Of a DNA stretch of 13,012 bases, positions 9,763 to 13,012 are shown piece by piece. Source of the stretch: Candidatus Pacearchaeota archaeon (GTDB lineage Archaea; Nanobdellota; Nanobdellia; Pacearchaeales; GW2011-AR1). Under the pieces are notes generated by a model. The model had not been told where the DNA came from. It saw nothing but the letters and a program-made list of their open reading frames with translations, and searched no databases. The stretch's first letter is position 1; each line of letters opens with the position of its first letter. The position numbers were made by a program, and so were the translations under genes. The DNA lies in assembly GCA_050302495.1 (NCBI GenBank), contig JBNLBP010000001.1:255269-268280 (forward strand). Reading direction: 5' to 3'.

Positions 9763-11607
9763 ATGACAAATAGATTTTACGTTACAACCCCTATATACTA
9801 TCCAAATGACATCCCCCATATAGGCCATGCATATACAACTATAGCGGCAGATGTCCTTGCGAGATGGAATAGGTTATTGGGAAAAGATGTTTTCTTTTTA
9901 ACTGGAACTGATGATCATGGTAAGAAAATTGAGAGTATTGCTAAAGAAAAAGGTCAAAAACCTAAAGAGTTTATTGATAAGTTAATTCCTAAATTTAAGG
10001 ATGCTTGGAAGAAATTAAATATTGATTATGATTATTTTATAAGAACTACTGATAAAGCGCATGAAAAAGTGGTTCAAGAAGTTCTCCAGAAAGTTTATGA
10101 CAAAGGAGATATTTACTTGGGAGATTATGAAGGGTTTTATTGTACTGGATGTGAGGCGTATTATACAGAAAAAGATCTTGAAGATGGAAGTTGTCCGATA
10201 CATAAAAAACCCGTTGAGGTTTTGAAAGAGGAAACTTATTTCTTTAAATTGAGTAAGTATCAGAAGAAGCTTTTAGATTTGTATAAGAAGAATCCAGAAT
10301 TTATTTCTCCTAAAAACCGTTCAAAGGAGATAATAAATAGAGTTGAAGAAGGATTGAAAGATTTGAGTATTTCTAGGACTAGTTTTGACTGGGGTATAAA
10401 ATTGCCTTTTGATAAGAAACACATAGCATATGTTTGGTTTGATGCTCTTTTGAATTATTATTCTGCTACTAGATTGAAAGGAAAAGAAAAATTCTGGCCG
10501 GCAGATGTTCATTTGATTGGTAAAGATATTATTTGGTTCCACACTGTTTATTGGCCTGCTATGTTGCTTAGTGCAGGAATTGAATTGCCTAAGAAAGTTT
10601 TTGCACATGGATGGTGGACTTTTGATAACGAAAAGATTTCAAAGTCTCGGGGAAAGGTAATAAATGTAGACGAACTTATAGGTATTGCAGGTGTTGATTC
10701 TGCAAGATACTTCTTGCTTAGAAATACTGCTTTTGGAGATGATGGTGATTTCTCAGAACAAGTTTTGATTGATAGACATAATAATGAATTGGCAAATAAA
10801 TTAGGCAATTTAGTTTCTAGAGTTTCTGGTTTAATTGAAAAGAATGGATTTGAAAAAACTTCAAATAAACTTTCTGACAAATTAAAATTAAAAGAAATTG
10901 AAAAATTGTTTGTTGGATGTGAATTTGATAAAGTTCTTAATGAGATTTTTGCCTTTGTAGATATTTGTAATGAGTATACTCAAAATAAAAAACCTTGGGA
11001 AACTAAAGATGGAAAGGTTTTGTATGAATTGGCGGATTCAATAAAAGCAATTGCAATATTACTTTGGCCTTTTATCCCAGAAACTTCAGAGAAGATTGCA
11101 AGGCAATTTGGATTTAAGATTGATTTAAAAGAATTGAACAAACCTTTAAGCGATAAGGTAAAAATAAAGAAAGGAACTGTTTTGTTTAATAAAATTGAAG
11201 TTAAGAAAGAGGAAAAAACTAATAAACCTAAGAATAATTCTAAGAATAGTAAAATTGAAGGTATTATGAATATGAGTGAGGCTAATTTTTCTGATTGGGA
11301 GAAACTTGATTTAAGAGTAGCAGAGATAAAAAAAGTAGAAGAGATTGAAGGGGCTGATAAGCTGTATAAATTGTCTTTAGATGTTGGAGAACTTGGAGAG
11401 AGAACTATTTGTGCTGGAATTAAACAATTTTATTCTAAAAAGGATCTTAAAGGTAAGAAAATAATTTATTTTTCTAATTTGAAACCTAGAAAGATGAAAG
11501 GTGTTGAAAGTCAAGGTATGTTGTTAGCCGCATCTACTGGAGACCATAGTGAAGTTATTTTGATTTCTCCAGAGAAAGATATTGATAATGGGGCAAGAAT
11601 AGGTTAA
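9763..11607 (+). CDS. metG: Methionyl-tRNA synthetase (class I) with C-terminal EMAP/Trbp111-like tRNA-binding domain
   Basis: HIGH motif: PNDIPHIGHAYT. KMSKS motif: KISKSRG. Zinc knuckle: YCTGCEAYY...GSCPIHKKP. The C-terminal ~110 aa (DLRVAEIKKVEEIEGADKLYKLSLDVGE...) form an OB-fold tRNA-binding appendix. I chose the ATG at 9763 (MTNRFYVTTPIYY) over the upstream TTG at 9745 in the ORF track. Confidence 0.93.
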   Translation: MTNRFYVTTPIYYPNDIPHIGHAYTTIAADVLARWNRLLGKDVFFLTGTDDHGKKIESIAKEKGQKPKEFIDKLIPKFKDAWKKLNIDYDYFIRTTDKAHEKVVQEVLQKVYDKGDIYLGDYEGFYCTGCEAYYTEKDLEDGSCPIHKKPVEVLKEETYFFKLSKYQKKLLDLYKKNPEFISPKNRSKEIINRVEEGLKDLSISRTSFDWGIKLPFDKKHIAYVWFDALLNYYSATRLKGKEKFWPADVHLIGKDIIWFHTVYWPAMLLSAGIELPKKVFAHGWWTFDNEKISKSRGKVINVDELIGIAGVDSARYFLLRNTAFGDDGDFSEQVLIDRHNNELANKLGNLVSRVSGLIEKNGFEKTSNKLSDKLKLKEIEKLFVGCEFDKVLNEIFAFVDICNEYTQNKKPWETKDGKVLYELADSIKAIAILLWPFIPETSEKIARQFGFKIDLKELNKPLSDKVKIKKGTVLFNKIEVKKEEKTNKPKNNSKNSKIEGIMNMSEANFSDWEKLDLRVAEIKKVEEIEGADKLYKLSLDVGELGERTICAGIKQFYSKKDLKGKKIIYFSNLKPRKMKGVESQGMLLAASTGDHSEVILISPEKDIDNGARIG

Positions 11608-11612
11608 TTTTG

Positions 11613-11650
11613 TTAGGTGCTGTTTTGTAGAAATAGCATTAAGTGCTGTT
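11613..11650 (+). repeat. Tandem 12-nt direct repeat TTARGTGCTGTT x2 immediately downstream of the metG stop
   Basis: TTAGGTGCTGTT at 11613-11624 and TTAAGTGCTGTT at 11639-11650 (11/12 identical, 26-nt spacing). These overlap GTTAGGT (11612-11618) and GTTAAGT (11648-11654), which match the GTTRRRY consensus. Confidence 0.5.
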
Positions 11651-11730
11651 AAGTCGCCCCGAGCCGATAGGCGAGAGCGCAGCGTGGTCGAGGCGAAGCC
11701 GAAGAAGTTTTGGGACGGAGGCAATACATC
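11651..11730 (+). repeat. GC-rich repeat copy A (diverged family with copies B and C)
   Basis: GTCGCCCCGAGCCGATAGGCGAGAGCGCAGCGTGGTCGAGGCGAAGCCGAAGAAGTTTTGGGACGG...TACATCAGCAG is about 65% GC in a ~30% GC genome. It contains a TCGCC/GGCGA hairpin and a GGC-GAA-GCC mini-hairpin followed by TTTT. It shares GGCGAAGCCGAA, TTTTGGG-CG and TACATCA with copy B. It shares CCGAGCC-RAWAGGCGAG with copy C. Confidence 0.6.
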
Positions 11731-11739
11731 AGCAGTATA

Positions 11740-11749
11740 TTTATAAATA
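11740..11749 (+). promoter_or_regulatory. TATA-box-like element for the downstream hypothetical gene
   Basis: TTTATAAATA lies ~24-33 nt upstream of the ATG at 11773. A GAAGGG purine tract lies 5-10 nt upstream of the ATG. Confidence 0.4.
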
Positions 11750-11772
11750 ATTTTTAATTCTTGAAGGGTAAT

Positions 11773-12273
11773 ATGTTAAGTGAATTAGAGCAAGAAGTTG
11801 TGGATAGTCATAAGGAAGGGTATTTTGGGGCATATATACAAGGGTCATGGTTTGAATATTCTGAATTACAGGAACAAATAGTTAGTGGAGAGTATCCAGA
11901 ATCATCAAGATTACAAGAAGCAAATAAAAAAATGAGTGGATGGAAAAAGGGGTTTGATATTACTTATTTACATTCATTGCCTCGTGCTGAAATTAATCCA
12001 TTACAAGTAGAACAAGAGGCATGGAAATTATTATCTCCAAATATCAAACAATATCTTAATGAATTCGGAACATATCTTGAAGGATATTCTCCCCAAAATG
12101 CGGATAGAGAACAACTTCTTGTTCATGTGAATTGGGGATGGAATTTACTGCAACAGTGGAATACCATTTCTAATTCATACAAAGCAAAGTATGACAAAAA
12201 TTGGTCATCAATTCCAGAAAGAGAGGAAGCCACAAGACAACTTATTCAAGAATTATCCTCTAAAAAACCGTAG
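11773..12273 (+). CDS. Hypothetical protein (166 aa), W/Q-rich, compositionally atypical
   Basis: I chose the ATG at 11773 (MLSELEQEVV...) over the TTG at 11761. The codon usage is GC-richer than the housekeeping genes, and the protein has a high Trp/Gln content (WFEYSELQEQ, NWGWNLLQQWN). There is no motif I recognise. It is flanked by repeat copies A and B. Confidence 0.5.
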   Translation: MLSELEQEVVDSHKEGYFGAYIQGSWFEYSELQEQIVSGEYPESSRLQEANKKMSGWKKGFDITYLHSLPRAEINPLQVEQEAWKLLSPNIKQYLNEFGTYLEGYSPQNADREQLLVHVNWGWNLLQQWNTISNSYKAKYDKNWSSIPEREEATRQLIQELSSKKP

Positions 12274-12292
12274 TCTCAAAATTGCACATAAT

Positions 12293-12400
12293 TCCTGTTA
12301 TATCCGTCGGAGTGAAACGGAGACCGAAGGTTAGTGCAACGTTCGGCGAAGCCGAAACCCGAAGAGTAATTTTTTTGGGCGTTACATCAAGAACGAAGTT
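12293..12400 (+). repeat. GC-rich repeat copy B, between the convergent genes
   Basis: CTGTTATATCCGTCGGAGTGAAACGGAGACCGAAGGTTAGTGCAACGTTCGGCGAAGCCGAAACCCGAAGAGTAATTTTTTTGGGCGTTACATCAAG contains a perfect TTCGGC-GAA-GCCGAA hairpin (12342-12356) followed by T7 (12371-12377). It is in the same orientation as copies A and C. Confidence 0.6.
12342..12377 (+). terminator. Hairpin + oligo-T; possible bidirectional terminator within repeat B
   Basis: A 6-bp GC stem with a GAA loop is followed 14 nt later by TTTTTTT. It lies between two convergent genes. Archaeal termination uses oligo-T tracts. Confidence 0.3.
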
Positions 12401-12436
12401 CCATTAAATAAAAGAATAAAGGGCAAGAAGAAACAT

Positions 12437-12856
12437 TTATTGTTGAGCTGGTAAATCATACTCAAATACTGGTCGTCCACTTTCTCGGAATTCAGCAGTT
12501 TCTCTCATTGATTGTTTTCCACCGCCAACTCTTACAAGAACATCAAGTGATTTTAAGAATGTTGGACTTTCGTCTCCCCATTCATTTCCAACAATCTGTT
12601 CTTCATCAACAGGAAAACAATCATGATCTTTAGCTTTAGAACAAGCGACACCAACGGTTCGCCAATCTCTAGAAACTGCTTCTCTATATGCTAATGCTGG
12701 AATTCCGAGGTCTGTTAGACCAGAAACAACTGCTTTTGATTTTCCAGCGTATTGACTATCAATAGTATCATATGCGTCCCTCAGCATTCTTACAGCTTCA
12801 GGTTCATCAAATTTCTGAGCTGAGTAACCTACAACTCCGATTTTTATTTCGTCCAT
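12437..12856 (-). CDS. SLOG-superfamily (DprA/LOG-like) Rossmann-fold protein, ~140 aa
   Basis: The preferred start is ATG at 12854-12856 (MDEIKIGVVGYS...). A TTTATATA box at 12881-12888 would then lie ~25-32 nt upstream. The ORF-track N-extension to 12904 would put this TATA box inside the CDS. Three motifs support the assignment: a beta1 Gly-rich segment IGVVGYS; VVSGLTDLGIPALAYREAV, which resembles the DprA SGxAxGIDxxAHxxAL motif; and RVGGGKQSMRETAEF, which resembles the LOG PGGxGTxEE motif. The gene is GC-richer than the genome. Confidence 0.5.
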   Translation of the reverse strand: MDEIKIGVVGYSAQKFDEPEAVRMLRDAYDTIDSQYAGKSKAVVSGLTDLGIPALAYREAVSRDWRTVGVACSKAKDHDCFPVDEEQIVGNEWGDESPTFLKSLDVLVRVGGGKQSMRETAEFRESGRPVFEYDLPAQQ

Positions 12857-12880
12857 GATACTATTGTAACTATTGAGTAG

Positions 12881-12888
12881 TATATAAA
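12881..12888 (-). promoter_or_regulatory. TATA box for the SLOG-like gene (leaderless-type spacing)
   Basis: Plus-strand tatataaa corresponds to TTTATATA on the minus strand, 25-32 nt upstream of the ATG at 12856. Confidence 0.45.
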
Positions 12889-12924
12889 TGTTTCTGTTGC
12901 CCAATCACTATTTAGCCCAAAAAA

Positions 12925-13012
12925 ATTATTGGATATAACCGTTGTTCGAAGACCGAGCCAAAAGGCGAGGCACGAGCTGAAGTCCACAGACTTCCTCGTG
13001 AGTTGAAATTTG
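12925..13012 (+). repeat. GC-rich repeat copy C (truncated by the window end)
   Basis: GGATATAACCGTTGTTCGAAGACCGAGCCAAAAGGCGAGGCACGAGCTGAAGTCCACAGACTTCCTCGTGAG. CCGAGCCAAAAGGCGAG aligns with copy A's CCGAGCCGATAGGCGAG, and ATATAACCGT aligns with copy B's TTATATCCGT. It contains a 12-bp imperfect hairpin with a 2-nt bulge and a CACA loop: CACGAG-CT-GAAGTC(12971-12984) [CACA] GACTTCCTCGTG(12989-13000). Confidence 0.55.

Follow-up and report, generated by a model that had tools for sequence, protein, structure and literature searches.

Probable recombination-bounded gene cassettes with integron-like and Xer-like features downstream of metG in a DPANN archaeon

The metG locus and its repeat block

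We analyzed a stretch of 13,012 nucleotides from a Candidatus Pacearchaeota archaeon (GenBank assembly GCA_050302495.1, contig JBNLBP010000001.1, forward-strand positions 255,269 to 268,280; hereafter the window), which is of DPANN archaeal origin and has a GC content of 32%. Its genes include those for TBP, an ATP-dependent DNA ligase, ribosomal protein L15e, tRNA-Ile, and a TrmB-type regulator as well as metG, for which a scan of the GTDB representatives returned loci of metagenome-assembled genomes of Pacearchaeota and Woesearchaeota as the nearest relatives, with at most 83% identity. Directly 3' of the metG stop codon (11605-11607) begins a block of three GC-rich repeats, A, B, and C, that lie on the same strand regardless of the direction of the two open reading frames (ORFs) between them, ORF1 on the plus strand and ORF2 on the minus strand. 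In the following, we describe why an array of single-gene cassettes bounded by recombination sites probably begins in this region, belonging to a DPANN family with integron-like and Xer-like features for which a XerA-type enzyme is the likely recombinase.

The initial annotation of this DNA had already pointed to three co-oriented, hairpin-bearing repeats of high GC content that start immediately after metG and delimit two foreign-looking genes. Three same-strand GC-enriched islands indeed lie at the positions given there, and their common orientation despite the opposed genes is evident; islands with at least 50% GC are the tRNA gene, A (11626-11739), B (12292-12385), and C (12927 to the window end), besides a few weak ones of approximately 50% to 52%. 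The proposed GC content of 60% to 65% applies to A (61%) but not to B and C (47% each at the extents assigned to them). Among the sequence blocks said to be shared, the 12-mer GGCGAAGCCGAA is exact in A and B and the 17-mer CCGAGCC-RAWA-GGCGAG is common to A and C, each with 0 matches in 200 shuffles. Copy C has the described stem of 12 bp with a 2-nt bulge, but single-sequence folds of A and B are no better than those of shuffled sequences (z of -0.6 to -1.9), and we accept structure in these two copies because of covariation across the family rather than because of single-sequence folding. Likewise, only ORF2 (GC content of 0.393) is richer in GC than the housekeeping genes as both ORFs had been claimed to be, while ORF1 (0.339) falls within their range of 0.29 to 0.36.

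No repeat copies were found elsewhere in the 13-kb window, and ARAGORN reported neither a tRNA nor a tmRNA in the repeats. To compare array presence, synteny, and recombinase content, we used a set of 80 related metG loci (loci and contigs outside the window are given by their L numbers). The gene order upstream of metG is kept across relatives, and the closest one (L011) has no array 3' of metG and instead carries a convergent gene directly there. No homolog of ORF1 and no ORF1/ORF2 synteny was found among the 80 related loci; ORF2 has a homolog in one of them, L034, in another gene context. This homolog (58% identity) is part of a three-gene cluster just upstream of metG (L034 8700-9950) and has no flanking sites. 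Using a profile built from A and B, we found copies of the repeat in 4 of the 80 loci, a single one in L050 and same-strand pairs 0.7 to 1.2 kb apart in L005, L013, and L007.

Cores and cassettes

A family alignment on CTGTTA shows that the block CTGTTAWRTC, listed in the initial annotation among the shared ones, is a recombination core composed of a left arm ending in TAA, a spacer KYSCTG, and a right arm TTAWAT.... The functional unit is larger than the element of 70 to 90 nt that had been proposed and consists of this dif-like core plus the GC-rich repeat, here called module Y, together with inverted-repeat cassette ends. Every cassette starts with module Y, which lies directly 3' of the crossover and follows the right arm, and the GC-rich repeat is an extra module in this position instead of the attC site that it had been suspected to be.

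Site A (11632-11659, plus strand), whose register comes from the family alignment, adjoins metG as the first core of the array and has the left arm AATAGCATTAA (11632-11642), the spacer GTGCTG (11643-11648), and the right arm TTAAGTCGCCC (11649-11659). The spacer motif is doubled at 11616-11629, where TTAG-GTGCTG-TTTTGTA lies 26 nt upstream of TTAA-GTGCTG-TTAAGTC; judging from its sequence, this duplicate may have remained from a core or may represent an empty junction that was left between metG and the array. Site B (12281-12308, plus strand) is composed of left arm ATTGCACATAA, spacer TTCCTG, and right arm TTATATCCGTC, and site C (12928-12955, plus strand) of left arm ATTGGATATAA, spacer CCGTTG, and right arm TTCGAAGACCG, the latter being part of the next cassette. 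Two inverted arms of around 11 bp with a spacer of 6 to 8 bp are the hallmark of Xer/dif-type sites, and the comparison was made with the experimentally used dif site of Pyrococcus abyssi, ATTGGATATAA-TCGGCC-TTATATCTAAA (PMC2958812, Methods). Its left arm is identical to that of site C (11/11), and site B matches it at 9/11 positions in the left and 7/11 in the right arm. Upstream of A, B, and C, the best complement has 3 to 4 mismatches in 11 positions and hence reaches chance level only, so that a reading of the window's sites as attC was rejected; all three have a plain dif-like form without spacer hairpin.

The recurrence of cassette 2 elsewhere shows its mobility. Positions 12294-12939, comprising module Y_B and ORF2, are 92% identical (599/653) to metagenome contig L120, and the ORF2 protein shares 93.5% identity with its counterpart there. 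This homology starts at CCTG|TTATATCC and stops at ATTGGATA(T/C)AAC, i.e., at the cores, and the flanks are unrelated: the end of ORF1 and Y_C in the window, attC-like hairpins on both sides in L120. Cassette 2 also illustrates a rule that we tested across the family: for neighboring sites i and i+1, reverse complementation of the right arm at i yields the far arm at i+1. The first 8 nt of this cassette, TTATATCC, are matched at 8/8 positions by the reverse complement of GGATATAA from its 3' end, and the same full complementarity is seen in 7 pairs of plain sites including window B to C. Pairs of hairpin-bearing sites (described below) reach a mean of 7.04/8 with at least 7 matches in 19/26, compared to 4.96 when a site is scored against its own arm and 5.08 when pairs are random. 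Arms at integrated sites are hybrid, and those owned by one cassette are perfect inverted repeats, a complementarity of cassette start and 3' arm that is the signature of integron cassettes. The boundary known from integrons (G|TTRRRY, with the cassette start complementary to its own 3' R'') is found in cassette 2 and weakly in cassette 1. Because a cassette begins with what had been the 3' half of its own R' box, we place the exchange at G|TTA.

Cassette 1 (11649-12297, plus strand) consists of module Y_A, a TATA-like box (11740-11749), ORF1 (11773-12273, plus strand; 166 amino acids, no Pfam match), and a 3' end with GTCTCAAAA (12273-12281), arm ATTGCACATAA, and spacer TTCCTG. In cassette 2 (12298-12944, plus strand), Y_B is followed by a T-rich stretch, ORF2 (12437-12856, minus strand; 139 amino acids, weakly SLOG-like), a TATA-like box (12880-12889), and a 3' part with GCCCAAAAAAATTA (12915-12928), arm ATTGGATATAA, and spacer CCGTTG. 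The start of cassette 3 (12945-13012, plus strand) carries a divergent Y_C that is cut at the window end. A second inverted repeat lies inside the arms, since the stretch after Y (the tail) is complementary to the stretch before the next arm (Z), with 14/14 positions in cassette 2 and 9 to 16 nt in 8 type-1 pairs, compared to approximately 6 in controls. The corresponding pairing in cassette 1 comprises 9 bp including one G·T as read from the sequence, with a score at control level when only Watson-Crick pairs count. Pairing of the Y tail with the region upstream of its own site had been considered as well and turned out not to be the case; the partner is at the next site, i.e., in the same cassette.

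The family alignment shows left modules shared by copies with differing Y modules and vice versa, and cassette 2 has a relative on L127 that encodes a different ORF between a 5' end of 146 nt with 91% identity and a 3' end of 69 nt with 81% identity; a cassette on L189 also shares these ends and holds an ORF different from ORF2. The shared 5' ends comprise Y and the T-rich stretch and the shared 3' ends the TATA-like region and the arm (12289-12433 and 12871-12939 in the window, 712-857 and 1464-1526 in L127, and likewise in L189). Near-identical ends around different ORFs therefore indicate a conserved chassis with varying cargo.

These results bear on the idea that the repeats are MITE-like miniature transposable elements or generic intrinsic terminators, which would fit short, repeated, intergenic, and hairpin-rich sequences as well as cassettes with inverted-repeat ends. 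We give this idea hardly any credence, given that cassette 2 has no target-site duplication (flanks TTCCTG versus CCGTTG), that the mobile unit takes in the gene and breaks at the cores, and that co-orientation is strict in all multi-copy loci (38/38, see below) whatever the gene direction. Moreover, no copy follows any of the other approximately 15 genes of the window, copies are present in only 4 of the 80 related loci, and a terminator scan returned 0 sites (terminator and promoter scans were uninformative here). The outcomes that the initial annotation had named as speaking against its proposal, such as a spread of the repeats as generic terminators, thus did not occur. Conversely, its view of an acquired cargo region bounded by recombination sites is strongly supported by the recurrence of cassette 2 with breakpoints at cores, along with the closest relative that lacks an array after metG, the non-syntenic ORF1 and ORF2, and the R''/R'-type complementarity of cassette ends.

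Combining these features, we propose that cassettes would move by site-specific recombination at tyrosine-recombinase cores, with strand exchange just 5' of TTA (G|TTA). Each cassette would begin with the TTA-right arm, continue with module Y and a gene that has a promoter of its own, and end with the left arm and spacer. Circularization would bring its two arms together as an inverted repeat, as in dif or the attC R box, forming a junction ...GCCCAAAAAAATTATTGGATATAA-NNNNNN-TTATATCC... in this case or, more generally, GCCCAAAAAAATTATTGGATATAA-N6-TTATATCCGTCGG. In about half of the family, a covarying spacer hairpin completes an attC-like fold, whereas the window's sites are of the simple dif-like form. 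The conserved three-helix fold of Y at the 5' end of the cassette would be an accessory in single-stranded DNA, and recombination would be carried out by a XerA-type enzyme encoded at the downstream end of the array.

Distribution of the family

A DNA pattern of three boxes that we ran on metagenome contigs matched at least 120 loci; among the matches listed, nhmmer confirmed 118 with a total of 170 copies, most of them on contigs with 26% to 42% GC. Arrays of this family are common in DPANN archaea similar to Pacearchaeota and Woesearchaeota. In viral contigs, the three-box pattern gave 0 matches, and 7 viral matches of a looser early pattern were dismissed as random with none of them validated by the profile. 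An independent profile built from 151 copies, with the window sequences left out, recovers B with E=2e-20 and A with E=5e-6. The array of L013 comprises three sites, one of them with a weaker Y copy (6811-6930, minus strand) that the covariance model detects and the sequence profile misses.

Among the matches listed, copies are co-oriented in 38/38 multi-copy loci at a median spacing of 896 nt, and the cassette units are of 0.35 to 2.5 kb and contain single genes. In integrons, co-oriented sites lie between short ORFs that mostly lack promoters and point the same way; here, the sites are co-oriented, the orientation of the ORFs is mixed, and the window's cassettes have their own TATA-like boxes. 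The cargo of other arrays is diverse, with no Pfam match for 6/10 proteins and annotated examples including HIT, Asp/Glu racemase, a metallo-beta-lactamase fold, a kinase-like protein, DUF5680, nitroreductase, and deaminase.

Hairpin form of the site

Many other members of the family have a site that is more elaborate than those of the window. In 80/156 unique copies, the reverse complement of 7 nt of the arm and 4 nt of the spacer is found 65 to 165 nt upstream with no more than 2 mismatches, and 51 of these 80 are perfect 11-mers, compared to approximately 4 mismatches for the best random match. The paired sequences covary between copies (TTAAGAG/CTCTTAA, TTAACCG/CGGTTAA, TTATACG/CGTATAA, and GGAATTTAACG/CGTTAAATTCC), and the layout is ...TAA-C-NN(N)-{hairpin}-TG-TTA... 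with 4 nt (39 copies) or 5 nt (15 copies) of spacer plus TG left outside the hairpin and hence an effective spacer of 6 to 7 nt. One such site folded as single-stranded DNA gave z = -6.6 and -7.7 on the two strands and a predicted structure with an R box of 4 bp, followed by a 2-nt bulge, an L box of 12 bp, and finally a branched tip. As modeled, the hairpin-bearing sites that make up about half of the family are attC-like.

In the branched tips, e.g., at 3850-3940 in L104, a stretch of AATTTGGAYGGAG is conserved, and a small hairpin has the loop TGCAA. This TGCA(A) motif, present in the tips and as the invariant box of module Y, suggests a predicted shared binding site.

Recombinase genes at the array ends

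Tyrosine recombinase genes were found in only 3 of the 80 metG loci (L005, L013, and L068), and L005 and L013 are two of the three array-bearing ones; the third array stops at a contig end. Eleven more are encoded near sites in the metagenome loci (among the matches listed), and in the resulting 13 loci the enzyme is invariably XerA-like (13/13) and nearly always encoded downstream of the last site in the same orientation (12/13). The L013 protein of 267 amino acids passes the XerA_Arch model with 230.9 bits (cut-off 220), and its best match among solved structures is XerA of P. abyssi (4a8e), aligned in one stretch. By contrast, integron-integrase models match it in two separate stretches that skip the IntI insertion, and IntI4 (2a3v) aligns in two stretches as well. 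This insertion, the extra domain around patch III that characterizes IntI-type integrases, is absent from both proteins checked by model or solved structure (L013 and L005), and the window contains no recombinase gene. Where the initial annotation had suggested looking for a recombinase with the IntI-specific insertion, related loci have a XerA-like gene that lacks it. XerA normally is a housekeeping resolvase; by analogy with these loci, a XerA-type enzyme encoded at the downstream end of the array is likely the recombinase also for the cassettes after metG.

In most loci, a terminal site without module Y lies approximately 100 to 150 nt upstream of xerA. It has an arm ATTGnnnnTAA-C, a perfect palindrome of 9 to 13 bp with a loop that often is GTTTAT, and a TTCTAT-like right arm. 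Examples are L013 (around 4090-4160, minus strand), L117/L178, L141, L161, and L147. Judging from sequence and position, this site may be the primary insertion site and could correspond to attI or to the dif of the chromosome. In L005, the XerA gene linked to the array contains an in-frame TAG codon (2175-2177) in the region encoding the N-terminal SAM-like domain (...RG-stop-SRQTIKTYKFHVKEF...), which could mean a pseudogene, an assembly error, or recoding.

A canonical integron array without a local integrase, known as a cluster of attC sites lacking integrases, would account for part of these data if the sites were ordinary attC, IntI were encoded elsewhere, and the adjacency of XerA were coincidental or linked to dif. 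Around half of the family's sites have the R''-L''-variable-L'-R' architecture with bulged bases, the cassette signature and G|TT crossover are as in integrons, and genomes of Pacearchaeales and Woesearchaeales with 2 to 4 attCs and no IntI were included in the genome list of a previous study (Ghaly et al. 2022, PMC9668308). We nonetheless regard this explanation as unlikely. The L-box hairpin is lacking at sites A, B, and C as well as in roughly half of the family, the recombinase nearby is XerA-like in every locus and without IntI insertion in L013 and L005, and its constant position, downstream and co-oriented, differs from that of intI. In addition, a special terminal site lies upstream of xerA, and every cassette carries an additional module Y, which is not known from integrons.

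Module Y

The GC-rich repeats fall into subfamilies with different folds. Y_B (12298-12380, plus strand) belongs to the AGTGCAACG subfamily, the major one, which has the order P1 hairpin, CCGAG, P3a, AGTGCAACG, P2 hairpin, P3b, and CGAAGAGT. The covariance model recognizes Y_B with 71.8 bits (E=8e-14), and its elements are the P1 hairpin, CCGA, P3a GGTT, AGTGCAACG, P2 TTCGGC-GAA-GCCGAA, P3b AACC, and CGAAGAGT before the tail TAATTTTTTTGGGC (12367-12380). Y_A (11649-11716, plus strand) represents a second subfamily, named for AGCGCAGCGTGG, with a different helix topology; here, a GA-flanked hairpin GCC-GATA-GGC is followed by the box AGCGCAGCGTGG, a hairpin GGC-GAA-GCC, and CGAAGAAGT, with the tail TTTTGGGAC at 11708-11716. 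Relatives that are 88% to 92% identical to Y_A are found in L168, L193, and L101. Y_C (12945-13012, plus strand) starts with CCGA-GCC-AAAA-GGC-GAG, an A-like first hairpin, and continues with the 12-bp stem and its 2-nt bulge. The initial annotation had counted C as a third copy of the family, and it is one in its core site and first hairpin; beyond that, Y_C diverges and is recovered by neither the profile nor the covariance model.

Using the covariance model, we realigned 119 Y copies (104 distinct) and found compensatory changes in 19/19 pairs of the helices. Cells are paired in 89.9% of cases compared to 61.3% in shuffles, and the covariation score of 0.488 exceeds those of shuffles (0.134) and of slid partners (no more than 0.171). 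Among 1580 cells, there are 1397 Watson-Crick pairs, 24 G·T, and 25 A·C, i.e., the helices show neither a wobble excess nor strand asymmetry. The P2 loop is GAA in 84/104 sequences and P1 loops are GAA, GTA, or GCA, so that GCGAAGC-type hairpins predominate in P1 and P2. C-GNA-G triloops such as d(GCGAAGC) form exceptionally stable mini-hairpins of DNA, whereas RNA hairpins prefer GNRA tetraloops and tolerate G·U.

Module Y could alternatively be a small structured noncoding RNA gene or an element acting at the level of transcripts, e.g., an insulator or processing signal, that is separate from the cores. Three strongly covarying helices with the conserved unpaired boxes CCGAG, AGTGCAACG, and CGAAGAGT would be expected of an RNA, a T-rich run often follows 3' of CGAAGAGT, and in archaeal genomes rich in AT, islands of high GC often turn out to be RNA genes. 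Unlike in typical RNA helices, however, G·U is no commoner than A·C, and the loops are mostly triloops closed by C-G instead of GNRA tetraloops; these two features lead us to read the fold as one of DNA. The same conclusion is drawn from the absence of a conserved TATA-like promoter upstream of Y (the position is taken by the core or a GC-rich hairpin), the mixed orientation of Y relative to the cassette gene, and the lack of any Rfam match at E up to 1 for A, B, C, and the L097 array. An RNA-level role of Y is, in our judgment, decidedly improbable, and Y is most likely, according to this modeled fold, a single-stranded-DNA accessory structure for recombination or second-strand synthesis.

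By eye, Y was also considered as the start of an RNA with C/D-box, H/ACA, or K-turn motifs, but the boxes do not fit and the symmetry of G·T and A·C opposes it. A coding function was dismissed as well, since A and B do not have the same open frames and the indels do not come in multiples of three. The likeness of Y to d(GCGAAGC)-type mini-hairpins and to the hairpin signals of single-strand initiation lies in the GCGAAGC hairpins of P1 and P2, and it is only a lead as regards a possible replication role. Some Y copies (L150, L121, L207, and L205 with the site at 167) combine P3 halves of different types, e.g., GCCAA with ATCCC, and their sequences look as if two Y modules had recombined inside the invariant AGTGCAACG box.

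Relation to integrons and Xer systems

Archaeal integrons have been described previously and mostly are attC clusters without IntI (Ghaly et al. 2022, PMC9668308). The supplements of that study, as far as they were available to us, contain no attC sequences matching our motifs, though some hairpin-bearing sites of the present family may be among its attCs. Neither its main text nor a 2021 review of archaeal tyrosine recombinases describes the linkage to XerA, the plain dif-like form of sites, the terminal site next to xerA, module Y, or the cassette chassis; integrative mobile elements exploiting Xer (IMEX) have 0 occurrences in the review, and a targeted literature search returned nothing closer.

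The arrays resemble integrons in their tandem, co-oriented sites between small and mostly single genes whose functions are diverse or unknown, in the G|TT crossover of a GTTRRRY-like box with a cassette start complementary to a 3' RYYYAAC-like box, and in the half of family sites that are imperfect palindromes with covarying sequence and bases unpaired on one strand. They differ from integrons in that the linked enzyme is XerA-like, lacks the IntI-specific domain, and is encoded downstream in the same orientation; in that many sites including the window's three are composed of arm, 6 nt, and arm without an L box; in the conserved three-helix module of approximately 70 to 80 nt that opens each cassette; and in the mixed gene orientation and TATA-like promoter boxes of the cassettes. 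We know of no integron that contains an element like module Y. Given the XerA-like enzyme without IntI insertion and window sites without attC palindrome, this is not a canonical integron; the array is a variation on the integron/Xer theme outside of the integron family proper.

With archaeal XerA/dif (Cortez et al. 2010, PMC2958812), the arrays share the 11-nt arms and 6-nt spacer (TAA|N6|TTA), the adjoining XerA orthologue, and a left arm up to 11/11 identical to P. abyssi dif. Stacked IMEX and dif modules are similar as arrays of elements that are each bounded by dif-like sites, yet the units described here are tiny (0.35 to 2.5 kb) single-gene cassettes, unlike IMEX, and their sites are co-oriented while those of pdif modules alternate. 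The attC-like hairpins and module Y have no counterpart in Xer systems. In bacteria, IMEX such as CTX phage use folded single-stranded DNA, and pdif modules occur on Acinetobacter plasmids.

Several observations weigh against the proposed cassette array. The arm complementarity of cassette 1 is just 5/8, and the arms of site A are poor, matching each other at only 5/8 positions next to a left flank that is chromosomal. The three spacers of the window all differ (GTGCTG, TTCCTG, and CCGTTG), which would disfavor a full double-strand Xer reaction between these sites. Copy C goes unrecognized by the family profile and covariance model, and the mixed orientation of cassette ORFs (17 same, 27 opposite) is unlike that of typical integrons. 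Neither an excised circle nor an empty site was observed. There is no recombinase gene within the window, so that its link to xerA is one of analogy with other loci, and the adjacency there could have arisen by array build-up at the chromosomal dif with another enzyme (e.g., IntI encoded elsewhere) as catalyst. Finally, the function proposed for Y is tentative, and Y may be transcribed.

The sequences show directly the sites, the cassette boundaries, the mobility of cassette 2, the covariation, and the linkage to xerA in other loci, whereas catalysis by XerA, a role of single-stranded DNA, and the function of Y are proposals. Weighing both sides, we still consider the cassette array the probable explanation. 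More tentatively, and with somewhat less than even confidence, we suggest that it exemplifies an undescribed mode of cassette capture in DPANN archaea that would bridge dimer resolution and integrons by combining a housekeeping-type XerA, sites ranging from plain dif-like to attC-like, and cassettes that each bring both a single-stranded-DNA module (Y) and a conserved promoter/terminator chassis fitted with different genes. Integron integrases are thought to have descended from Xer-like recombinases, and to our knowledge there is no known system in which a Xer enzyme serves cassette arrays. If true, our proposal would show a route from Xer/dif to integron-type recombination of attC, and the coexistence of dif-like cores and attC-like hairpins in one array family beside xerA makes the question of integron origin testable with defined substrates. 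DPANN archaea have very small genomes and depend on hosts; such arrays would provide these genome-reduced organisms with a dedicated means of gene exchange, and with occurrences on at least 120 metagenome contigs, this cassette system would constitute a major path, overlooked so far, for the flow of accessory genes among them. Module Y and the cassette chassis are candidate DNA elements without a curated model. Apart from the array, a small intergenic island of 50% GC (3304-3355), for which Rfam and tRNA searches gave no match, is located in the window between the genes for the DNA ligase and a membrane protein.

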